Positions 1,255 to 12,011 are shown, counted from the first letter of the stretch. The stretch is 42,920 nt of DNA from a virus (IMGVR_UViG_2541047955_000001:1-42920), one strand, 5' to 3'. Notes: generated by a model not told the origin, from the sequence alone. Program-made: numbers and translations.

Positions 1255-1368
1255 ATAAAACCGGGTGATGCAAAAGTAGCCATTTGATTCACAAGGCCAT
1301 TGACGCATCGCCCGGTTAGTTTTAACCTTGTCCACCGTGATTCACGTTCGTGAACATGTCCTTTCAGG

Positions 1369-1444
1369 GCCGATATAGCTCAGTTGGTAGAGCAGCGCAT
1401 TCGTAATGCGAAGGTCGTAGGTTCGACTCCTATTATCGGCACCA
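1369..1444 (+). tRNA. thrW: tRNA-Thr (anticodon CGU)
   Basis: 76-nt cloverleaf GCCGATATAGCTCAGTTGGTAGAGCAGCGCATTCGTAATGCG...ATCGGCACCA; anticodon loop TTCGTAA; classic P22 attB tRNA. Confidence 0.93.
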
Positions 1445-1446
1445 TT
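1399..1446. other. attL core (3' part of thrW)
   Basis: attcgtaatgcgaaggtcgtaggttcgactcctattatcggcaccatt repeated at 41423-41470. Confidence 0.85.
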
Positions 1447-1458
1447 TAAATCAATAAG

Positions 1459-2619
1459 TTACCGCACATTTAAGTAAACCACGTTCTCCTCTTGTGCCGT
1501 ATTTGTGCCATTGCGACTTATAATCGCATCGATTTTGCTCGCGTGCTCGGTGAGATGCCCGGCTGAAAGGTGAGCGTATCTTTGAACCATTTCGAGAGTT
1601 TCCCATCCCCCCATCTCTTTAAGTGCAAGAAGAGAGACTCCGGACTGAACCAGCCAGCTTGCCCAGGTGTGTCTCAGGTCATGGAATCGGAAGTTGCTAA
1701 TGCCTGCCCGCTTTAACGCTCCCTTCCATGCTTTGTTGCTATCGGTTCTCATCTTCCTTACCGCAGCTGTTTTTGTTCCGTCGCTTCGGTAGGCAGGTTT
1801 GGTGTGGACAAATACCCATCTCTTATGGAGCCCCTGCTGTTTTCTTAATATCTGGCATGCGGTTTCGTTAAGAGGAACTCCGATCGCATTGCCAGCTTTT
1901 GTTTCATCAGGGTGCATCCATGCCATTTTCTTATCCAGATCGACCTGTGACCACTCAAGGTCTGTAACGTTGGAACGGCGAAGGCCTGTCGTGATTGCAA
2001 ACATGACCACAGGGAAGAAATGAGGAGCAATTTCTGCAAACAGGCGCTTCGATTCCTCCTCTGTAAGCCATCTGATTCGTCCATTCTTAACGCGTGGTGT
2101 TGATATTTTGGGTGCCCTGTCAAGCCATCCCCATTCAACAGCCATATTGAGAATAGCACGAAGTATTGCCAGATGCCGCGTCTTCGTTCCTTTGCTTGCC
2201 AGCTTTGGTTTATACTCCGGCACTGGCTTGCCAAGCCGCAAACACCTGTCCCGGCTCATTTCCCAGTTCAGGCGATGGCGGCGGTTTTCCATCCCGTCTA
2301 CCGCCTCCATTATTTTTTCTGTTGTTATGTCAGAGAGAATGGTTTCTCTGAAGTGCAACATCCAGAACGATATAATGCTCTTGTCATCATCAATGGACTT
2401 CTTATCCGCTTTCTCACGCAGCCACCGTATGCAGGCTTCCTTGAATAGCTTTTTCGGTGATTCCCCGAGATTTTTTACTCTCCACGCTTCTGCTTTCAGA
2501 CGATCGTGAAGTTCTTGCGCTTGCCTTTTGTCCGATGTTTCAAGAGAGCGTCTAACTCTTGATCCATCTGGCGCGACGAAATCGCAGTGCCACGTGCCAC
2601 CGCGTAGTTTGATTGACAT
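1459..2619 (-). CDS. int: tyrosine integrase, P22 Int type
   Basis: 386 aa; C-terminal HDLRHTWASWLVQSGV...YAHL catalytic region; N-terminus resembles P22 Int; adjacent to tRNA 3' end. Confidence 0.95.
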   Translation of the reverse strand: MSIKLRGGTWHCDFVAPDGSRVRRSLETSDKRQAQELHDRLKAEAWRVKNLGESPKKLFKEACIRWLREKADKKSIDDDKSIISFWMLHFRETILSDITTEKIMEAVDGMENRRHRLNWEMSRDRCLRLGKPVPEYKPKLASKGTKTRHLAILRAILNMAVEWGWLDRAPKISTPRVKNGRIRWLTEEESKRLFAEIAPHFFPVVMFAITTGLRRSNVTDLEWSQVDLDKKMAWMHPDETKAGNAIGVPLNETACQILRKQQGLHKRWVFVHTKPAYRSDGTKTAAVRKMRTDSNKAWKGALKRAGISNFRFHDLRHTWASWLVQSGVSLLALKEMGGWETLEMVQRYAHLSAGHLTEHASKIDAIISRNGTNTAQEENVVYLNVR

Positions 2620-2843
2620 GCTTTAACCTCCTGCACATCAACCGCATTCACCGCGCTATTGTGTCTCACAGACTTAAGCGCCGCAATGCAGTCTGACTTG
2701 CAAATGCGATATGGGCTTTTAGGTTTATCTGGATTTATCTTTGCGGCCTGAAGTCGTCCACTTCGTATCCACTGCGTGATAGTTCCTTTGTCTACCTTCA
2801 GATACGACGCTGCCTCTTCACGAGTGAAGATTTCTTCTTCCAC
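2496..2843 (-). CDS. xis: excisionase
   Basis: 115 aa, immediately upstream of and overlapping int; HTH-like N-terminus; size matches P22 Xis. Confidence 0.7.
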   Translation of the reverse strand: MEEEIFTREEAASYLKVDKGTITQWIRSGRLQAAKINPDKPKSPYRICKSDCIAALKSVRHNSAVNAVDVQEVKACQSNYAVARGTAISSRQMDQELDALLKHRTKGKRKNFTIV

Positions 2844-2932
2844 CTGGAGTCTCCATTTATTGAGTTGGTATTATTGCGGTAGGTCTGGATATCTTGAGAA
2901 ATGAACAGTCCTCATCGAGTGTGAGACTGTGG

Positions 2933-3277
2933 TTAGTCCTTGCGTAGTTCGCTAATTCTTCTGTAAGTCTCTGGTGCTTTGTTTCCGTGTATCTTCATTT
3001 CAGACTTCAACAGAGCAACAAGGGAATTCCATTCGTTGAGGATTCCTTTGAATGCCGGAACGCGCTTTGCAACCTTGTCGAATGAATCTCTGATTTCTGG
3101 AATCTGCTCAACAAGTGCAACGCATCGTCGGAAATCGGCTGCGTCATGTGGAGCGCCGAAGTGATGACCATAGATATTCTTTTTCAGTCCACATGCGATT
3201 GAGGCAAGAGTTGCGCTACTGATGCCGACATCGCCAGTCGATTGCCATTTCAAAACCTTCATAGCCAAATCTGACAT
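2933..3277 (-). CDS. hypothetical early-left protein
   Basis: 114-aa ORF in the leftward operon; no recognised motif. Confidence 0.5.
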   Translation of the reverse strand: MSDLAMKVLKWQSTGDVGISSATLASIACGLKKNIYGHHFGAPHDAADFRRCVALVEQIPEIRDSFDKVAKRVPAFKGILNEWNSLVALLKSEMKIHGNKAPETYRRISELRKD

Positions 3278-3289
3278 TTCTTGTCTCCA

Positions 3290-3316
3290 ATAAAAAAACC
3301 GCCATCAGGCGGCTTG
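3290..3316 (-). terminator. intrinsic terminator (minus strand)
   Basis: Minus-strand hairpin GCCGCC-TGAT-GGCGG followed by T6. Confidence 0.6.
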
Positions 3317-3472
3317 GTGTTCTTTCAGTTCTTCAATTCGAATATTGGTTACGTCTGCATGTGCTATCTGCGCCCATATCATCCAGTGGTCATAGCAGTC
3401 GTTGATGTTCTCTGCTTCGATAACTCTGTTAAATGGCTCTCCATTCCATTCACCTGTGACTCGGAAGTGCAT
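3305..3472 (-). CDS. small hypothetical protein (55 aa)
   Basis: Not in ORF track (<60 aa); MHFRVTGEWNGEPF...; GGAGA-type RBS 5 nt upstream; flanked by terminators. Confidence 0.4.
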   Translation of the reverse strand: MHFRVTGEWNGEPFNRVIEAENINDCYDHWMIWAQIAHADVTNIRIEELKEHQAA

Positions 3473-3489
3473 TTATCATCTCCATAAAA

Positions 3490-3545
3490 CAAAACTCGCC
3501 GTAGCGAGTTCAGATAAAAGAAAACCCGCACTCGGCGGGTTCGCA
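3490..3545 (-). terminator. two tandem intrinsic terminators (minus strand)
   Basis: Minus-strand hairpins CCCGC-CGAGT-GCGGG+TTTTCTTTT and CTCGC-TAC-GGCGAG+TTTTGTTTT. Confidence 0.55.
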
Positions 3546-3820
3546 TTCGTTCAAATTGCGTTTACTTCTTGGCGTTCTGCTCATCCATATCGATATACCA
3601 TGGGTTGCTTCCCTTGGGCATGTTTAACGACTGCTCGCGATAGTATCTGATGCGCTCCATGAAATATTCGCGTGAGTGCTCAGGTTGCTATCATGATACC
3701 TGCTCAGTGATAACAGGTATGTTAAGGCGCTCTCTGTACTCCATGCCTGATGCTGCAAGGTCAACGTTTACCTTGTTCTGTTTTTCTTTCGATTTCTCGG
3801 CGATGTTATGCCTGACATTG

Positions 3821-4063
3821 TCAACCCGCCTCCTTCTGAACATAACGGTTATAAATCAGTCCCTGAGGGCCATAAGGAAGCGGGATGTGCAACTCCTCTG
3901 GTTCAGAAACTATCCATTCCCCGGCCATCTCGGCTGGAGAGGTAATGATAAGTTGTTTGCTAATAAAAGGACCACTCCTCTCAACAACAAGCTTACCATC
4001 TTCATTAATAAAAGCTTGGATGTCAGGTGTGCTTCCACACTTGGTGATGCAGCGTTTGAACAT
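3821..4063 (-). CDS. hypothetical protein
   Basis: Track ORF 3821-4105; start placed at internal Met with GGGGGA-type RBS; the overlapping plus-strand ORF looks antisense-like. Confidence 0.4.
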   Translation of the reverse strand: MFKRCITKCGSTPDIQAFINEDGKLVVERSGPFISKQLIITSPAEMAGEWIVSEPEELHIPLPYGPQGLIYNRYVQKEAG

Positions 4064-4189
4064 TTTGTGTCCCCCCATTTTATGTACGGGGTAATTATAA
4101 CACATTGAAATATAGTAATATTTGACGTAGATTTCTTTTGATCTATAAGCGATTTTTTAATGCTTTTAAGTTATAAATACTTGTTTTCA

Positions 4190-4951
4190 TCACCCATCTT
4201 GCTGCGGTGCTACTATTGAAAAGTACTCACACCCTTTAGCCCAAATAGTTTTGATAGTTGTCCAACTGACTGGAACCTTGATTTCGATTCTCCCGCTGCC
4301 GTCACAAGTTTCGCAATCATCATCACCAAAGCATTCCGGGCAGCTTATAAACGTAGTTTCTGAAAATTCACCGGATAGCACACCCTTAGCGCCGTTCTCA
4401 GCGGTTAGTTTCTTCGGCACTATAACCCAACCATCCGGAGTTACCGGAGAGTTGCCATTTATATCGAAGTTTGGCTCTGCGTCCTGAACCAGGAGGATGT
4501 AACCATTCTTGGCAGTATCAAGTTCTAACGCCTCGGTGACGGTGCCGAAATAGCGATTACCTAAATCAGCATCACAAGTGCTTACATCAATGGAAACTTC
4601 CATGCCTTCGATTAATTCTGCCAAGTTGTAAGCTTGGCTTACAGGTTCGGCTTCCAGTTCTGCTATGCGCTTATTTGCTGCTTCCAGCTCATCCAGCAGC
4701 GCCAAGACGGTAGCAGGATTGGCTGCGGCGATGAATTCAGCATTGGCCTGCTGTTCCATTTGGAAATCTTCATCGAAACCGCTTTCAGGATGCGCTCCTT
4801 CAATTCTGCAAATGGGAATATATCCAACAACGTCACGATGAATTAGCGCATCATCACAATCAGATCGGCTCTCTCCATATTCGAGCGACCACACACCACA
4901 CGTTGCTTTCTCTGCCTTTTCACGCAGTGCCTGATAGTCAATCTTGCTCAC
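4190..4951 (-). CDS. Ead/Ea22-like protein
   Basis: 253 aa; central coiled coil LLDELEAANKRIAELEAE typical of Ea22-like proteins; C-terminal CPECFGDDDCETCDGSG Cys motif. Confidence 0.6.
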   Translation of the reverse strand: MSKIDYQALREKAEKATCGVWSLEYGESRSDCDDALIHRDVVGYIPICRIEGAHPESGFDEDFQMEQQANAEFIAAANPATVLALLDELEAANKRIAELEAEPVSQAYNLAELIEGMEVSIDVSTCDADLGNRYFGTVTEALELDTAKNGYILLVQDAEPNFDINGNSPVTPDGWVIVPKKLTAENGAKGVLSGEFSETTFISCPECFGDDDCETCDGSGRIEIKVPVSWTTIKTIWAKGCEYFSIVAPQQDG

Positions 4952-5192
4952 TGGTTGCCTCCTGCTTTTCTGCCTTCAACACCATGCGAGAACCATCATC
5001 CAGCTCCCACGCGATCTCACCACCTTCAGCCATGACCAGTCGCCACACCAATTGAGCAGCCTCATTGGTAACATCACGACCTGGATCATTGCCAACGCGC
5101 ATACGTCCACCTTCAACATCGCGCATTTTTGCCAGCATGATAGTTTTTGATAGCGGTGAAAAACCAAGCTGTAGTCGTGCTGAATTACTCAC
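4938..5192 (-). CDS. hypothetical protein
   Basis: 84-aa track ORF with GTG start overlapping the upstream stop. Confidence 0.4.
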
Positions 5193-5356
5193 TGGTTGCC
5201 TCCTTTACGCCACATCGCATTCAGATATTTGTTTTGATTCACTGATGGAAAAGAATTTCTCTTAAGCAATTCCTCTCTCGATGGCATTGGCTTTACGCGT
5301 TGGCGAATAATCATTTCTGCCGGAAGAATGCCTGGATTGTATGCAAGTCCTCTCAT
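5189..5356 (-). CDS. small hypothetical protein (55 aa)
   Basis: Not in track; [15 protein letters not shown]...; start overlaps the stop of the upstream gene (ATGA). Confidence 0.4.
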
Positions 5357-5643
5357 GATTTACTCTCCACTAACTGGTCAATAGCCATGCTAAGTGACAT
5401 ACCTAAAGTTTCGATATGCTGCTGAATATCCTGTAGCGTCTGCGCCTGAGATAACAGGATTTCACGGTTGCATAACTCTTTAACCAGATGCTCAAACTTG
5501 CTGTAATAACCGATACGGCTTAGTGTTTCTTTCCCTGCATTCTCGCCTTCTTTGATAATTCCTCTTTCGCTAAGAATCAGATCGTGTTTTGTTCCGGTAA
5601 TAACGTATTTTCCGAGGTCGATGTTTAGCTTCATTGTTTTCAT
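5353..5643 (-). CDS. hypothetical protein
   Basis: Track ORF 5353-5796; start placed at [10 protein letters not shown] with GAGGA RBS. Confidence 0.5.
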
Positions 5644-5653
5644 TGTTAATTCC

Positions 5654-5950
5654 TCAGTCATTACTGATAGCGCCATAGCGTGAGCGGTAATTACGCAGGC
5701 GCGGGTCGATATATTCAGGGAAGTGGGTATATGTGGCTTTGCGGAATGGTCGGATTGATGTCTGGTAAATTCGCTCGCGTTCTTCTTTCTCTGCAAGCCA
5801 TATACAGTGGCGAAATTCCTTTTCCTCTTTCGTTTCCTGCGGTAGAGACATTATCCGGTCGTAGTTTTTTCTGAATTTATCCAGCACCTCCGATACGGAA
5901 TTGCCGGAACATCGGCGTGGGTCATCCTCACCATACAGAGGCGCTGGCAT
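5654..5950 (-). CDS. hypothetical protein
   Basis: 98-aa ORF left of the ssb/erf pair, the position occupied by abc genes in P22. Confidence 0.5.
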   Translation of the reverse strand: MPAPLYGEDDPRRCSGNSVSEVLDKFRKNYDRIMSLPQETKEEKEFRHCIWLAEKEERERIYQTSIRPFRKATYTHFPEYIDPRLRNYRSRYGAISND

Positions 5951-5973
5951 AATGGAATCCTTATTTTTCTATA

Positions 5974-6357
5974 TCAGAATGGGATGGAATCGTCGTATAC
6001 AGGAGTGTTCTGCTGGTTACTACTTTGCTGCTGCGGGCCATTTCCTGAAGCTGTAAATCCAATCTTTGCATTCAGTAATTCAAGAGTAATTGATTGACCA
6101 TTTTGCCCCTGATAAACATCAACCCTGATGTTTTCTCCGGTAATTTCCACAATGCCACCTTCAACAAGAACGCTACGGTGGTAATCCGCTTGCGCTCCTG
6201 GCTTGGCAAATACAACGGCGCTGTAGTTTGTCCATTCTTTCTTTTTTGTCTGGCGATCGTAATACTGAACGCCAGCACGGATGTTGAATCCGATATTTTC
6301 CCCGGCCTGAAACTCTCTTGCGGGCTTGTTTAGTCTTACAGTAATCGAATGTGCCAT
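5974..6357 (-). CDS. phage single-stranded DNA-binding protein-like
   Basis: 127 aa from internal Met; C-terminal acidic tail ...PVYDDSIPF resembles the SSB DDDIPF tail; start overlaps the erf stop (TAATG). Confidence 0.65.
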   Translation of the reverse strand: MAHSITVRLNKPAREFQAGENIGFNIRAGVQYYDRQTKKKEWTNYSAVVFAKPGAQADYHRSVLVEGGIVEITGENIRVDVYQGQNGQSITLELLNAKIGFTASGNGPQQQSSNQQNTPVYDDSIPF

Positions 6358-6962
6358 TAAGCAGCAGCTCCTTCTAATTCGTCTCGTCTGATGTTGTAAA
6401 CGTCCTGCGCTTTGTGCTGCTCCGGTGTGCCTTCGAGCATCTTCCACGCTTTGGCGAACGCCTGTTTAAGCTCTTCCACGGTGTTTTTCTGCAATGCTGC
6501 GTCAGTGAATGCTTTTAGAACCTGTTCAGGTGTAGGTGATAGTTTTGATTGCTTTGCTGCTGCGTTCTGCTGATGTTTATGCTCGTCGGTATCTGCATCT
6601 TTCGCATCATCAATGCCGAACAAACCATTGAGGCAATACTTGCGTGCATAAGAGCTTGTAGCTCCCGTAACTTGTGCAGAATCCATTCCTTTCTTGCTTT
6701 CTTCCTCTCGTGCAAGGGCGGTTGCCGTATGACTGTTTTCGCCATCGGTAATAGTTGCCGTGGCTTTCACGTAATACCGATCACCAATCAACACAACTTC
6801 ATCGCTGATTGATAAAAACAGGCCATTCAGTAACGGCTTAACGCCTTCAAGAATGTCTTCGCAGCTTCTGTATTTATATTTACCGAATGAGTTGTACTGA
6901 TTCTTTGGCGCGTTCAGATTCTCCTGAATAGCTGCCAGTCTTGCGTAAAATTCTTTGCTCAT
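6357..6962 (-). CDS. erf: Erf recombination protein
   Basis: MSKEFYARLAAIQENLNAPKNQYNSFGKYKYRSCEDILEGVKPLL... matches P22 Erf as recalled. Confidence 0.88.
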   Translation of the reverse strand: MSKEFYARLAAIQENLNAPKNQYNSFGKYKYRSCEDILEGVKPLLNGLFLSISDEVVLIGDRYYVKATATITDGENSHTATALAREEESKKGMDSAQVTGATSSYARKYCLNGLFGIDDAKDADTDEHKHQQNAAAKQSKLSPTPEQVLKAFTDAALQKNTVEELKQAFAKAWKMLEGTPEQHKAQDVYNIRRDELEGAAA

Positions 6963-7511
6963 ATGATTGTTCTCAGAATGGACACGGCCCAAGGAAATAA
7001 CGCTGATTTAATACTTCGACTCGGGACAAGTTAAGGCATACCCGCATTCCTTCGCGGTCGCCATTATGTCGATACCAGAGAGCTTTCTGCGTGTACATGC
7101 GCCTCTGTAACTTGCTCTCCTTCACTGTGGTTGCAAGTGACATGAATATCTCCTTCGTTACCGATTAATTCTTTCATCTGACGAATGAATTCTTCGTCTG
7201 ACCAGTTATCTGTAAAACTCATTTCCTGCGATACCATGGAAGGTTGATAGCTAATTTCATCTCTTTATTTGCTTCAAGCCACATTTTGGAATCACCAATA
7301 AATCTGGCTATTACTGCTTTGTTTTGTGCAGCACGAAGTATCTGGTGATTGATGGCTATTTCATTGCGCATAATAAGACCTCAACTCTTTTCCATCCGTC
7401 ACGTAATTTACGGGTGATTCGTTCAAGTAAAGATTCATTTAGTTGGAAGGCACCCATGCGAGCGCCTCCCGCGATTGCGTAAATCATGGGTGGTTCCTTA
7501 TGTTGGTTTTA

Positions 7512-8480
7512 TTAGTAGGTTATTTTTGTTGCGAATACTTCGCCTTTTACGATGGCTGTTATGATATTTTTAGCAACATCTTCTGATGCACCAACCTTGA
7601 TAAGGTCAGCAAGTATTTTGTTATTTACTTCTTTCCGGTGAGCTTTATCCTTTGCTCTACGCTCTTCTTCTTCCTTGATTCTTTTTTCTTCTGCTATTCT
7701 GGCTTGCTCTTTTGCTTCAGCCTCGCGACGGATTCGTTCAGCCTCCTCCTGTGCTTTTCTGCGTTCTGCTTCAATTGCTGCCTGCTTTTCTCTTTCAGCT
7801 CGTTCTGCTGCCTCTTTTGCTTCGCGCTGTGCTCGTTGCTCGGCTTCAATGCGTTCACGCTCTGCACGTTCCGCTGCGGCCTTAGCTTCTGCTTCTCGCC
7901 TTGCTGCTGCTTCAATTTCGGCTTTTGCCTTTGCTTCGGCTTCAGCTCTGGCTTTCTCTTCAGCTTCTCTTTTTAAGCGTTCTTCATGCTCTCGCTTTTC
8001 CTGCTCCGCTTTGAGTCTTGCCTCTTCTCTTTGGCGGTCAAATTCGCGATCCATCAAAATCGCTATTTCATGGTCAGACTCAATTTGCTTTGCGAGAGCT
8101 TCAGCTGCTGCCTTAGCTTCTTCTTCGGCTTTAATCCGCGCCTGTTCTTCCTCATAATCAGTAAGAGGCTGGCGTGCCTTGGCTTTCAGTTCATCAAGGC
8201 GATCGCGCACTGTCTTGCGGTTGGCATCAATTAGCTTTGGAATTTCCTTCAGTTCAGCAACAAGGTCTTTTCCAAGACCATCGAGATATGTTTTCGTCTG
8301 CGCAACTTTATACGCCAGAGAAGCGATCTCCTTTCTGCCCTTTGCCGTTGTGATATCAGGCACAAAGGACATAACTTCACGTTCAACCTTTTGAAGGATT
8401 TCTTCAATCTGGTCGGCAGACTGAAATACAGTCATTGCATTTGCTTTTTCAATAACAACTAAATCTGTTACTTCACTCAT
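7512..8480 (-). CDS. hypothetical coiled-coil protein with Glu/Arg/Ala/Lys-rich low-complexity region
   Basis: Track ORF 7512-8534; start at MSEVTDL with GGAGGA RBS; ~170-aa tract of AEAKAKAEIEAAARREAEAKAAAERAER-type repeats. Confidence 0.6.
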   Translation of the reverse strand: MSEVTDLVVIEKANAMTVFQSADQIEEILQKVEREVMSFVPDITTAKGRKEIASLAYKVAQTKTYLDGLGKDLVAELKEIPKLIDANRKTVRDRLDELKAKARQPLTDYEEEQARIKAEEEAKAAAEALAKQIESDHEIAILMDREFDRQREEARLKAEQEKREHEERLKREAEEKARAEAEAKAKAEIEAAARREAEAKAAAERAERERIEAEQRAQREAKEAAERAEREKQAAIEAERRKAQEEAERIRREAEAKEQARIAEEKRIKEEEERRAKDKAHRKEVNNKILADLIKVGASEDVAKNIITAIVKGEVFATKITY

Positions 8481-8614
8481 ATATCCTCCATCAAAAAAAT
8501 TGCCCTCACATCGGAGGGCAAAGAAGATTTCCAATAATCAGAACAAGTCGGCTCCTGTTTAGTTAAGAGCGACATTGCTCCGTGTATTCACTCGTTGGAA
8601 TGAATACACAGTGC

Positions 8615-8803
8615 TTATTCGTCATGCATTTCAGGTAATTCTTCGTATTCGACTCCCCATACGTTTTTACACCAACTAACTCGCTCATATCTTTTACAAA
8701 AATCAGACCACATAACTTGTGTTCCATCATGGTTTGTTATTATTTCTGTAATATCACCAACACTAACAAAACTGGTATTAGAAGCAGTTATTTTTACTTT
8801 CAT
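8615..8803 (-). CDS. hypothetical protein
   Basis: 62-aa ORF in the leftward early operon. Confidence 0.4.
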   Translation of the reverse strand: MKVKITASNTSFVSVGDITEIITNHDGTQVMWSDFCKRYERVSWCKNVWGVEYEELPEMHDE

Positions 8804-9123
8804 TACTTATCTCCAAGAGCTTTTCTGATTGCTGCAAGACCTTTATTAACAGCTCCATACCATTCTGGATATGTTGTCGTTGTTCTATTTTTGGTTTGCT
8901 TAAGTAGTAACTGAAGTGCTTCGAGAAGGTCAGGCGCTGCCGCTATTAGATTGGCATCTTCAATGCATTGAACTTCCTCACAGATTGCAATATACGAACG
9001 CCAGCCTGTGCCATTTTCAAGAGAGTCTGCCTGGATGATTTTAATCTCATCGCCATCCATCATTATTTCCCACTTACCTTCAGTACCTTTAAATTCCATG
9101 TTAGCCTCTGTTGTTTGTGCCAA
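8803..9123 (-). CDS. hypothetical protein
   Basis: 106-aa ORF, protein-like composition. Confidence 0.5.
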   Translation of the reverse strand: MAQTTEANMEFKGTEGKWEIMMDGDEIKIIQADSLENGTGWRSYIAICEEVQCIEDANLIAAAPDLLEALQLLLKQTKNRTTTTYPEWYGAVNKGLAAIRKALGDK

Positions 9124-9138
9124 AAATAAAGGCCACCA

Positions 9139-9390
9139 TCAGGCAGCCTTGTTGTAAATGTTGCAGGTATCAAGTAAGTAATTAGATGGAGCGCCATAAA
9201 TTATGAATTCATCGTTTGTCGGGTCCATCTCCATCTCTTGGCCTATTGCCATTCTTGCGTCAGTGTCATCAGAGGCGAAGCATAAAACAGCCCACGCACC
9301 CATTGTTTTAAAAAGAACTGCAATTGGCTGTGGTTTTACTGAATTTGCGTTAGCGCGAAAATCACAAATCGCACTTTCATGAAACTCCAT
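9139..9390 (-). CDS. hypothetical protein
   Basis: 83-aa ORF. Confidence 0.45.
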   Translation of the reverse strand: MEFHESAICDFRANANSVKPQPIAVLFKTMGAWAVLCFASDDTDARMAIGQEMEMDPTNDEFIIYGAPSNYLLDTCNIYNKAA

Positions 9391-9444
9391 ATATCACCTC
9401 AAATAAGTGGTTTGCTGCGAAAGTAAATACGCTTAAGTTACCTG

Positions 9445-9582
9445 TTATTTATCCCACCAAGTTCCGTATCTATCTATCCAGTTACACCAATCATCGACAC
9501 TCCATTTTGTTGTGTCGCATTTTGGCAACTGGCATGAATATCTACCTTCTTTGTAAAGTCGGCGTTTGACTTTCTTGAGCAT
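9445..9582 (-). CDS. small Cys-containing hypothetical protein (45 aa)
   Basis: Not in track; MLKKVKRRLYKEGRYSCQLPKCDTTKWSVDDWCNW...; GAGGTGAG RBS. Confidence 0.35.
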   Translation of the reverse strand: MLKKVKRRLYKEGRYSCQLPKCDTTKWSVDDWCNWIDRYGTWWDK

Positions 9583-9698
9583 GGCTCACCTCAATCGTAA
9601 TAAGTTGGAATTGATTTTCCGCGTTGCTTCTGGCGGCCTGAGCAAGTCACACCCATTTCACTGCGTGGCTTGCGGTAGTAAATTAGATTTGTTCAGAC

Positions 9699-9721
9699 AA
9701 TAAAAAACCCACCGAAGTGGG
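9699..9721 (-). terminator. intrinsic terminator (minus strand)
   Basis: Minus-strand hairpin CCCAC-TTCG-GTGGG followed by T6, directly after the 9722 stop. Confidence 0.55.
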
Positions 9722-10066
9722 CTATGACCATTTTTTATTTGGATTTCGTTGGTGAGCGTGATTAACAACTCTGTGCATTACATCCTCATATTTTTCATCT
9801 TCAATTTTTTCGACATCGCGAGGAAATGGTGTTGCTAATGCTTTGTCAACTTTATCCATTGGGTCTTCATTAATCTTATATTCAGGACCGTCATCTATAG
9901 CATTAAATCCAGGTGTTACACCGTTTTTTAATGCATATGCTATCCTCTTTTCCCATCTCGCTATTCTCCTCCTGTCTCGAGATGTAAGACCTCTATCAGA
10001 TACTTTTCTGTTTTGTCCGCGGTCAGGATTAACATAAATAGTCTTTTTCACCATAAGCATACTCAA
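9722..10066 (-). CDS. hypothetical basic protein
   Basis: 114-aa ORF, highly charged, immediately downstream of the N-like gene. Confidence 0.5.
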   Translation of the reverse strand: MSMLMVKKTIYVNPDRGQNRKVSDRGLTSRDRRRIARWEKRIAYALKNGVTPGFNAIDDGPEYKINEDPMDKVDKALATPFPRDVEKIEDEKYEDVMHRVVNHAHQRNPNKKWS

Positions 10067-10368
10067 TAAGCACCGTACGGTAGTTTACTGTACAATTTTA
10101 TTTTTTGGACTGCATGTATTTTGTTTCCTAATGGGTTTGAATCTTTGTAATAAATACTTCTATTTTTTCGAACGACTTCTTCTTTCTTCTTGCAGCAAAG
10201 GATTCCTAGTGATGCTGCTTTGTCTGCTTTGACGCAACCAGAGAGCTTTAGCGCAATTTTTCGCGCCAGTGCTTCATTACTGCGTCGCTCGGCAATAAGT
10301 TCTGCTCTGCGAGCTTTGTAGCGGCTTTTTGCCGTACCTTTGGATTCTTTCCAGACAATGGTTACCAT
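10063..10368 (-). CDS. N-like transcription antiterminator (P22 gene 24 position)
   Basis: Start at MVTIVW with AAAGGAGA RBS; N-terminal arginine-rich motif GTAKSRYKARRAELIAERR; first gene of the leftward operon next to c2. Confidence 0.55.
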   Translation of the reverse strand: MVTIVWKESKGTAKSRYKARRAELIAERRSNEALARKIALKLSGCVKADKAASLGILCCKKKEEVVRKNRSIYYKDSNPLGNKIHAVQKIKLYSKLPYGAY

Positions 10369-10660
10369 GATGGTCTCCTTTAAGTGGCTTTGGCGCATGA
10401 CGCGTCGAGGTGCTTATCTTCTCGATCGCTGTCTTGCAGCTGCAATTCGCGCCATCCCCAAAACCACTCAAGTTCTGGTCTCAACGGTTAGGTTGAGAGT
10501 CCGTCGATGTTAAAGAGCCTGCCAATCTGTTCCGTTTGGCTTCCAGCGTCCTGCTGATGGCTTAAATTTAAGACTTCTTAATTTATTGGTCAAGTGCATT
10601 TTTGAAGAAAACTTAATTCTATGGGCGTGAATTTAGTTTGTCTTTGATTTTTAACGGGAA

Positions 10661-10682
10661 ATAAAAAAGGGGCGAAAGCCCC
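10661..10682 (-). terminator. intrinsic terminator after c2 (minus strand)
   Basis: Hairpin GGGGC-TTTC-GCCCC followed by T-run on the minus strand, immediately 3' of the c2 stop. Confidence 0.6.
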
Positions 10683-11333
10683 TTAAGGAAGGTTTGCTAG
10701 CTTGGCATCAACGACAACGCCAATGATTTTACAGTTCCCATTGATTTCAATCATTGGGTATTGTGGATTGAGTGGTTTCAGGAATTTTCTACCGGCATCA
10801 ATAACTAACTTTTTGAATGTCGCCTCGTTTTCTCCTTCAAGTTTGGCGACTACCAGCTTTCCATTACGTGGTTCGACTTCTGGGTCGACGAGAATAATCA
10901 TCCCCTCAGGAATACTCAGTCCTGCCGGGGCAGTCATTGAATCGCCTTTAACGTCGAGCCAAAAAGAGTCTTCAGAACAATCTACCGTTGTGTCGTACCA
11001 GTTATCTATTGCACGCCTATGATATGGCTCTACAGCTTCCATCCAACATCCTGCGCTTACCCAACTAATTAGAGGATACGAACCTCTTGGATCATGCCTG
11101 CTGTGATAGGCAATGTTTGAAAGACTATCCTCTCCTTTCAACAGGTAATCAGGGGAGCACTGCAAAGCCTTGGCTAAGGCCAATAGGTTTTCGCCATTGG
11201 GCTCAGTTTCAGATCGCTCCCATTGGGAAATAGCAACATTAGACACGCCAACCATCTTGCCAAGGGCAGCCTGCCTAATCTTGAGTTCTTTTCTGCGAGC
11301 GCGAATACGCTCACCCATCAGTTGTGTATTCAT
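10683..11333 (-). CDS. c2: C2 repressor (CI analogue, LexA/S24-like C-terminus)
   Basis: 216 aa, near-identical to P22 C2 as recalled (MNTQLMGERIRARRK...IIGVVVDAKLANLP). Confidence 0.95.
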   Translation of the reverse strand: MNTQLMGERIRARRKELKIRQAALGKMVGVSNVAISQWERSETEPNGENLLALAKALQCSPDYLLKGEDSLSNIAYHSRHDPRGSYPLISWVSAGCWMEAVEPYHRRAIDNWYDTTVDCSEDSFWLDVKGDSMTAPAGLSIPEGMIILVDPEVEPRNGKLVVAKLEGENEATFKKLVIDAGRKFLKPLNPQYPMIEINGNCKIIGVVVDAKLANLP

Positions 11334-11413
11334 AGTTAAGACATCTTAAATAAACTTGACTTAAGATTCCTTTGGTGGATAATTTAAGTGTTCTTTAATT
11401 TCGGAGCGAGTCT
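11334..11413. promoter_or_regulatory. OR operator region with divergent PRM and PR
   Basis: Between divergent c2 and cro; P22-type operator half-sites (ATTTAAGTGTTCTTTAAT) and TTGACT-16 nt-GATAAT promoter toward cro. Confidence 0.6.
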
Positions 11414-11599
11414 ATGTACAAAAAAGATGTTATTGACCACTTCGGAACCCAGCGTGCTGTTGCTAAAGCACTAGGCATTAGCGATGCAGCAGTCTCTCAG
11501 TGGAAAGAAGTTATCCCAGAGAAAGACGCCTATCGATTGGAAATCGTTACAGCTGGCGCCCTGAAGTATCAAGAAAGTGCTTACCGCCAAGCGGCATAA
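11414..11599 (+). CDS. cro: Cro repressor
   Basis: 61 aa; HTH QRAVAKALGISDAAVSQW; divergent from c2. Confidence 0.9.
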   Translation: MYKKDVIDHFGTQRAVAKALGISDAAVSQWKEVIPEKDAYRLEIVTAGALKYQESAYRQAA

Positions 11600-11714
11600 G
11601 CAAATTGCTCTTTAACAGTTCTGGCCTTTCACCTCTAACCGGGTGAGCAAACATCAGCGGCAAATCCATTGGGTGTGCCGCTATAACTCAATATCAATAT
11701 AGGAAAATTAACAA

Positions 11715-12011
11715 ATGGCACAAGCAAGCTACAGCAAGCCAACCCAGCGAGAAATTGATCGCGCTGAAACTGATTTACTCATCAACCTGTCAACGCTTAC
11801 CCAGCGCGGTCTGGCAAAGATGATTGGCTGTCATGAATCGAAGATAAGCAGAACGGACTGGAGATTTATTGCTTCGGTCTTGTGTGCTTTCGGAATGGCA
11901 TCAGACATCAGTCCGATTAGCAGGGCTTTTAAGTATGCGCTTGATGAAATCACAAAGAAAAAATCCCCGGCCGCCACCGAGGATTTTAAGCAAATTGATA
12001 TGCAATTCTGA
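11715..12011 (+). CDS. CII-like transcriptional activator (P22 c1 position)
   Basis: 98 aa; resembles lambda CII in HTH and C-terminus (KKKSPAATE...QIDMQF). Confidence 0.7.
   Translation: MAQASYSKPTQREIDRAETDLLINLSTLTQRGLAKMIGCHESKISRTDWRFIASVLCAFGMASDISPISRAFKYALDEITKKKSPAATEDFKQIDMQF

Follow-up and report, generated by a model that had tools for sequence, protein, structure and literature searches.

Phage P22 encodes, downstream of erf in its early-left operon, the anti-RecBCD protein Abc2, which does not require ORF56 for binding RecBCD or for its function in recombination assays (PMC9836394; Murphy 2000, as cited). [quoted passage not shown] The slot between erf and abc2 is occupied in P22 by the gene encoding Abc1. 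The presence of an SSB-like protein in the Abc1 slot has previously been described for phage HK620 (PMC5928155) and for phage HK97, whose gp40 has been classed as SSB-1b (PMC12315714).

Loci of the same type were studied in phages HK75 and HK446 in a 2026 preprint on the OLD abortive-infection nuclease of P2. According to this preprint, Gp33, a small protein encoded upstream of erf, triggers P2 OLD and is a suspected RecBCD manipulator, and Gp27 (Oad2) of HK446, which is related to P22 EaE, directly inhibits OLD. Its authors refer to the region as a hotspot for anti-defence genes. In phage lambda, the equivalent compartment is the exo-xis region (orf60a, orf61, orf63, orf73, ea22, and ea8.5), in which small early genes extend from the recombination genes to xis/int and are reported to influence the lysis-lysogeny decision.

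The DNA stretch that we analysed (42,920 nt; referred to as the window) starts with proA (1-1254) and a tRNA gene (1369-1441; the only Rfam match, named tRNA-Thr in RefSeq). Next come the genes of an integrase (1459-2619, minus strand) and an excisionase-like protein, after which a long series of genes occupies the minus strand. The RefSeq chromosome NZ_OZ547246 is 100% identical to the window over positions 1255-12000. The order of its annotated genes in the direction of transcription is as follows: the side of the cI-type repressor, cIII, kil, the genes of an ERF family protein, a hypothetical protein, a phage anti-RecBCD protein, the DUF5405, DUF2737 and DUF7446 proteins, and an ead/Ea22-like protein, then further small genes, an HTH (xis-like) gene, and the integrase gene, with cI/cro lying beyond kil and cIII. 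The corresponding minus-strand genes of the window are erf, ssb, abc2, the genes of DUF5405, DUF2737 and DUF7446, and ead/Ea22. The nearest phage is HK446, the module of which is about 96% identical at the DNA level and the attP of which is annotated as similar to thrW. An HK446/HK97-like lambdoid prophage is inserted here at tRNA-Thr (thrW) beside proA, and the region is its early-left operon. Among 5426 complete E. coli genomes, 1408 contain parts of this gene set. Results of our analysis make it very probable that the recombination module ends, and the accessory ('ea') region begins, in the part of the operon considered here, and that abc2 and three cassettes that do not encode Abc proteins belong to one leftward transcript.

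The recombination modules of HK446 and HK97 comprise the same genes in the same order as that of the window (encoding Erf, a gp40-type SSB, and Abc2), with about 96% DNA identity. The product of erf (6357-6962, minus strand), a single-strand annealing protein, is 75% identical to P22 Erf and matches the Pfam ERF family (PF04404, E=5e-44). The next gene (5974-6357, minus strand) encodes a 127 aa SSB-like protein of the HK97 gp40/HK446 gp31 type, HK446 gp31 itself being annotated as similar to HK97 Gp40. This protein has no Pfam match, but it matches the single-strand DNA binding protein family phrog_44 (E=1e-25) and ends with DDSIPF. Thus, the slot that contains the Abc1 gene in P22 contains an SSB-like gene in the window. 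A BLASTP search of all window proteins with P22 Abc1 gave a single match, to orf114, at the chance level (E=1.3); the likeness to Abc1 is limited to the gene neighbourhood, and no ORF of the chain that follows ssb is similar to it. Apart from the recombination module, HK446 has in common with the window the DUF5405 and DUF2737 genes and the thrW integration module. The two differ behind DUF2737, where HK446 has the gene of Oad2 (gp27) and a deleted ead, and the window has the DUF7446 gene and an intact ead/Ea22.

Four small ORFs, all on the minus strand, follow erf and the SSB-like gene directly, as reported in the first-pass annotation, which had proposed, by analogy with the place of abc1 and abc2 in P22, that they could all encode recombination-accessory proteins or nuclease inhibitors. 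For the first of them (5654-5950, 98 aa), this guess was exact. As judged by its sequence, the 98 aa protein is a true Abc2 (anti-RecBCD protein 2). It is 91.8% identical to P22 Abc2 over the full length of 98 aa, and it matches Pfam family PF11043 (Anti-RecBCD_p2) over profile positions 1-97 of 97 (E=3.1e-61, 204 bits with a cut-off of 25), phrog_656 ('abc2 anti-RecBCD', E=4e-56), and the Abc2 chains of the cryo-EM structures 8b1t and 8b1u (E=8e-56). Its RefSeq product name is 'phage anti-RecBCD protein'. The alignment to 8b1t indicates that Pro68 is kept, within the conserved IRPFRK at residues 66-71, and that residues 1-66, which form the part modelled on RecC, differ from those of P22 Abc2 only by A8E, L32R, and A65S. 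Elsewhere, the two sequences differ by the insertion of one residue and at a few positions of the disordered C-terminal part. Besides Pro68, the two proteins share their length to within one residue and the place of their genes in the early-left operon, behind erf; they differ in host (E. coli vs. Salmonella) and in that abc2 of the window is not accompanied by abc1. By analogy with P22 Abc2, the protein would bind the RecC subunit of host RecBCD, recruit host PpiB at Pro68, and render RecBCD insensitive to Chi, upon which Erf and SSB of the phage would take over recombination.

For the three other ORFs the guess did not stand: when aligned with P22 Abc1 and Abc2, the 96 aa, 55 aa, and 84 aa proteins gave best BLASTP E values above 0.3. 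Nor are they devoid of recognisable motifs, as had been stated for the whole group, since each of the four ORFs has a Pfam match above the curated cut-off and a PHROG match. The three proteins belong to the DUF5405, DUF2737, and DUF7446 families, which are other than those of the lambda exo-xis region, and the Pfam scan gave no other family for them; the gene common to the lambda region and the window is that of the Ea22 family. We encountered one further group of Abc2-like proteins. Proteins of 97-99 aa encoded in three other loci (L095, 2910-3206; L096, 3197-3490; L097, 1857-2156) share only 33% identity with Abc2 and score below the Pfam threshold, and they keep the ends of Abc2 (M-x-x-P-L-x-G at the start and RYGxxxND at the end) and the position before the DUF5405 and DUF2737 genes. 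They appear to be an unannotated, diverged branch of the Abc2 family.

The genes from erf to ead are closely packed. The first-pass description of the small ORFs as a chain with overlapping stop and start codons applies to two of their three junctions: the 96 aa and 55 aa ORFs overlap by ATGA (5353-5356) and the 55 aa and 84 aa ORFs by GTGA (5189-5192), but abc2 is separated from the 96 aa ORF by a 10-nt gap, and a GAGGA Shine-Dalgarno sequence spans its TGA stop codon. Of the flanking junctions, that of erf and ssb is a 1-nt overlap (TAATG), that of ssb and abc2 a gap of 23 nt, and that of the 84 aa ORF and the 253 aa ead/Ea22-like gene a 14-nt overlap, with the GTG start of ead at 4951. Overlaps of 4 nt are the commonest type in bacterial and phage operons, and the packing observed here is therefore ordinary. 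Probably, the translation of each gene helps to start that of the next one, i.e., the genes are translationally coupled. A consensus scan of the minus strand between 4190 and 6992 revealed no promoter-like site and one weak terminator-like 6-bp stem (6822-6837, within erf), which fits a single transcript, and we infer that the genes from erf to ead are read as one leftward transcript. Towards xis, the minus strand of the operon has, between small genes, three strong terminator-like hairpins with U-tracts (3296-3315, 3492-3511, and 3522-3542), and their read-through would need antitermination. Beside them, at about 3562-3843 (minus strand), RefSeq indicates a frameshifted pseudogene similar to that of the DNA polymerase III theta subunit; a 32 aa ORF within it (3562-3660) matches phrog_1105 (theta subunit).

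The last of the four small genes (4938-5192, minus strand, GTG start) encodes the 84 aa DUF7446 family protein (PF24233, E=1.3e-18, 67 bits with a cut-off of 24.1; phrog_1578, E=9e-34). Its GTG start is preceded at a distance of 6 nt by the Shine-Dalgarno sequence AGGAGG. The gene has one copy of an exact 17-nt direct repeat, AGGAGGCAACCAGTGAG, at either end; the window contains two copies vs. 0.01 expected by chance. The upstream copy (5188-5204, minus strand) holds the Shine-Dalgarno sequence and GTG start of the DUF7446 gene and the stop codon of the DUF2737 gene. The downstream copy (4947-4963, minus strand), inside the 3' end of the DUF7446 gene, holds the Shine-Dalgarno sequence and GTG start of ead/Ea22 (4190-4951, minus strand; 253 aa; PF13935 Ead_Ea22, E=8e-24; annotated as such in RefSeq). 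The repeat combines the ribosome-binding site and GTG of the downstream gene with the last codons and stop codon of the upstream one. The start of ead that follows the repeat, GTGAGCAAGATTGACTATCAGGCACTGCGTGA, matches the boundary sequence bsq3 annotated in phage Sf6. In related loci, the same 17-nt junction joins many different gene pairs, and in some of them it leads from DUF2737 straight to ead. The repeat looks like a site at which cassettes get swapped in and out. Most probably, the DUF5405, DUF2737, and DUF7446 genes are small exchangeable cassettes joined via short conserved boundary sequences, and the overlaps of stop and start codons arise because such reusable mosaic joints carry the ribosome-binding site and start codon of the downstream gene.

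The DUF7446 gene is an uncommon cassette in this slot. It occurs within 600 nt downstream of abc2 in one of 74 IMG/VR loci with abc2 and in 4 of 80 locus architectures from this source. The family as a whole comprises 375 clusters, confined to Enterobacterales. Its 38 representatives at the 50% identity level, retrieved in an exhaustive representative search, included no informative relative, and the AlphaFold2 model of the protein is poor (pLDDT 63). The commonest DUF7446 gene of Salmonella (4001-4246 in the chromosomal loci L100-L105) lies among TraF_2 and DUF2859 genes. Such a gene context is typical of integrative conjugative elements. The occurrence of the Salmonella gene in a context of this kind indicates that the family is not phage-specific and moves between phages and other mobile elements.

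Our best guess, judging by the position of their genes, is that the three small DUF proteins are produced early and act on host factors or host defences, i.e., that they serve host takeover or anti-defence. A narrower version of this reading, namely, that they counteract systems that fire upon RecBCD tampering, such as OLD, retrons, and Gabija, and are not RecBCD effectors, is possible, and we hold it only tentatively. It is suggested by the gene content of the slot. In HK446, the gene of Oad2, a direct inhibitor of P2 OLD, lies exactly between DUF2737 and the boundary sequence, i.e., where the window has the DUF7446 gene, in the locus called an anti-defence hotspot by the authors of the preprint; P22 EaE occupies the same slot, and neither EaE nor Oad2 has sequence similarity to the DUF7446 protein. 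A homolog of the OLD trigger, 86% identical to HK446 Gp33, is encoded in the window at 7064/7070-7222 (minus strand), whereas no Oad2 homolog was found in the whole window (best tblastn E=1.6), so that other protection would be useful. The rapid turnover of cassettes at fixed junctions and the presence of DUF7446 on other mobile elements point in the same direction. However, all these indications are positional. No match of PADLOC defence-system models (eight proteins tested) or of any other family points to defence, and the DUF2737 and DUF5405 proteins are highly conserved and not fast-evolving. A P2-type DUF5405 protein (VUD38044.1, UDP0003) is included in the gene table of the accessory-gene screen of Silas et al. 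(supplementary file 19, bioRxiv 10.1101/2023.04.06.535777), and the main text of that report revealed no phenotype for it.

Of the three DUF proteins, DUF2737 is most likely the one tied to RecBCD hijacking of the Abc2 type. The gene (5189-5356, minus strand) encodes a 55 aa, very basic protein (pI 11.0) that matches PF10930 (E=9e-32, 109 bits with a cut-off of 25) and phrog_1117 (E=2e-37). It is an orthologue of P22 ORF56, to which it is 77% identical, and of HK97 gp38. Both of these are of the same size and encoded in the same place after abc2, except that in the window DUF5405 intervenes between abc2 and DUF2737. At the C-terminus, DUF2737 proteins have a tail (RKGGNQ in the window, RSGKK elsewhere) that varies with the cassette that comes next. 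We surveyed 80 IMG/VR loci with abc2, a sample in which Abc2 proteins with 98% or higher identity to the query are over-represented; in 74 loci, the sequence downstream of abc2 extended for 700 nt or more. In all 74, DUF2737 follows abc2, directly or past DUF5405: it is directly behind abc2 in 41 loci, behind DUF5405 in 21, and represented in the remaining 12 by one allele with an internal deletion. Since DUF5405 is present in just those 21 loci, it is an optional insert behind abc2. The deleted DUF2737 allele has an early stop (MRGLA*) and was found in loci L007, L008, L012, L013, L023, L024, L036, L039, L040, L047, L049, and L053; its recurrence indicates that the gene can be lost in at least one circulating lineage.

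The pairing of DUF2737 with abc2 is also kept in P22, ES18, and the phages TL-2011a and MG40, whose Abc2 proteins are 62% and 66% identical, respectively. Among GTDB species representatives, all eight DUF2737 loci have an Abc2-family gene in the operon, including the 33%-identical versions, and in the phage collection full-length Abc2 is present in 224 records and full-length DUF2737 in 221. The linkage is nevertheless not obligatory. In HK140, the DUF5405-DUF2737 pair lies behind a Mu Gam-like gene and abc2 is missing, and about 480 Guernseyvirinae records encode the C-terminal core of DUF2737, in a setting of small early genes, and have no Abc2 match. The activity of P22 Abc2 without ORF56 indicates further that DUF2737 is not needed for the core activity of Abc2. 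The linkage is thus real, and a common function of the two proteins is hypothetical. We favour DUF2737 over the two other proteins because the linkage holds even where Abc2 identity is as low as 33%.

A stronger form of this idea would make DUF2737 a working partner of Abc2-family proteins, which tunes the Abc2-RecBCD-PpiB complex or provides a shield from defences that sense RecBCD hijacking, with DUF5405 and DUF7446 as alternative anti-defence cassettes in the hotspot. The small size and strongly basic character of the protein and its adjacency to abc2-family genes over the range of 98% to 33% Abc2 identity are consistent with such a role. Positional 'guilt by association' is, however, weak in mosaic phage genomes, and we regard this partnership as rather improbable.

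Still less probable is the proposal that each of the four small proteins assists recombination or inhibits RecBCD in the manner of Abc1 and Abc2. Their genes do lie directly behind erf and ssb in one operon, one of them does encode Abc2, DUF2737 is nearly always linked to Abc2-family genes, and loci of this type encode a further suspected RecBCD manipulator, Gp33. But the three DUF proteins share no sequence similarity with P22 Abc1 or Abc2. Moreover, P2-like phages and N4-size podoviruses have DUF5405 where there is no recombination module, the core of DUF2737 is present in lytic Guernseyvirinae that lack abc2, and DUF7446 is present in the loci resembling conjugative elements. The published survey PMC12315714 also counts no gene beyond abc2 in the recombination module.

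The DUF5405 protein of the window (96 aa; 5353-5643, minus strand) is encoded from an ATG at 5643, the mechanically called ORF extending to a TTG at 5796. It matches PF17399 (26 bits with a cut-off of 21.6) and phrog_154 (E=1e-32), is of the HK446 gp29 type, and is 97% identical to gp24, the product of Sf6 gene 24, and 35% identical to P2 Orf83. The family is found also in podoviruses of 70 kb (N4-size), and in P2-like phages its gene adjoins replication gene A, the start of which is overlapped by orf83 in P2 itself. The predicted structure, with four strands and two helices, is confident (pLDDT 89). It gave no convincing match to solved structures, and in the Foldseek search its top matches were DUF5405 proteins and all fold relatives were uncharacterised phage proteins, from phages of Gram-negative and Gram-positive hosts.

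The description of phrog_154 and several phage records name such proteins 'replication initiation protein', and the overlap of orf83 with gene A in P2 might seem to agree with this name. We find such a function very improbable for the 96 aa protein. Pfam and RefSeq assign it a domain of unknown function, it is small and matches no solved initiator, its fold relatives are without exception uncharacterised, and in lambdoid phages the replication genes are distant from its gene, which belongs to the early-left operon. We rejected the label, having found neither homology nor fold similarity to a characterised initiator; most likely, it has been propagated from the neighbouring gene A of P2. A search of PDB sequences with the 96 aa, 55 aa, and 84 aa proteins gave nothing meaningful. 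The literature on DUF2737, DUF5405, and DUF7446 yielded one incidental mention, and that on P2 orf83 nothing functional.

That any of the small ORFs arose by chance and is not a gene is extremely improbable, their shortness, the GTG start of one of them, and the near identity of the DUF7446 DNA copies that were available for dN/dS comparison being outweighed by the curated family matches of all four, the conservation of the proteins across genera, dN/dS values well below 1 for abc2, DUF5405, and DUF2737 (0.09-0.44 vs. diverged homologs), and a Shine-Dalgarno sequence at correct spacing before each start codon. ORFs of the opposite strand in the region 4944-5874 gave no family match, and NCBIfam gave no match for any ORF.

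The non-Abc cassettes behind abc2 are therefore to be regarded as genes, and as such they are already known: all four small genes belong to named families and are annotated in RefSeq (as those of an anti-RecBCD protein, DUF5405, DUF2737, and DUF7446), and abc2 is structurally characterised. Of modest value are the three small conserved DUF proteins, encoded in a type of locus that carries both triggers and inhibitors of host immunity, exemplified by Gp33 and Oad2 in HK446. These proteins could be included at low cost in screens for anti-defence or RecBCD-related functions, and the tight linkage of abc2 and DUF2737 is a concrete, testable lead.
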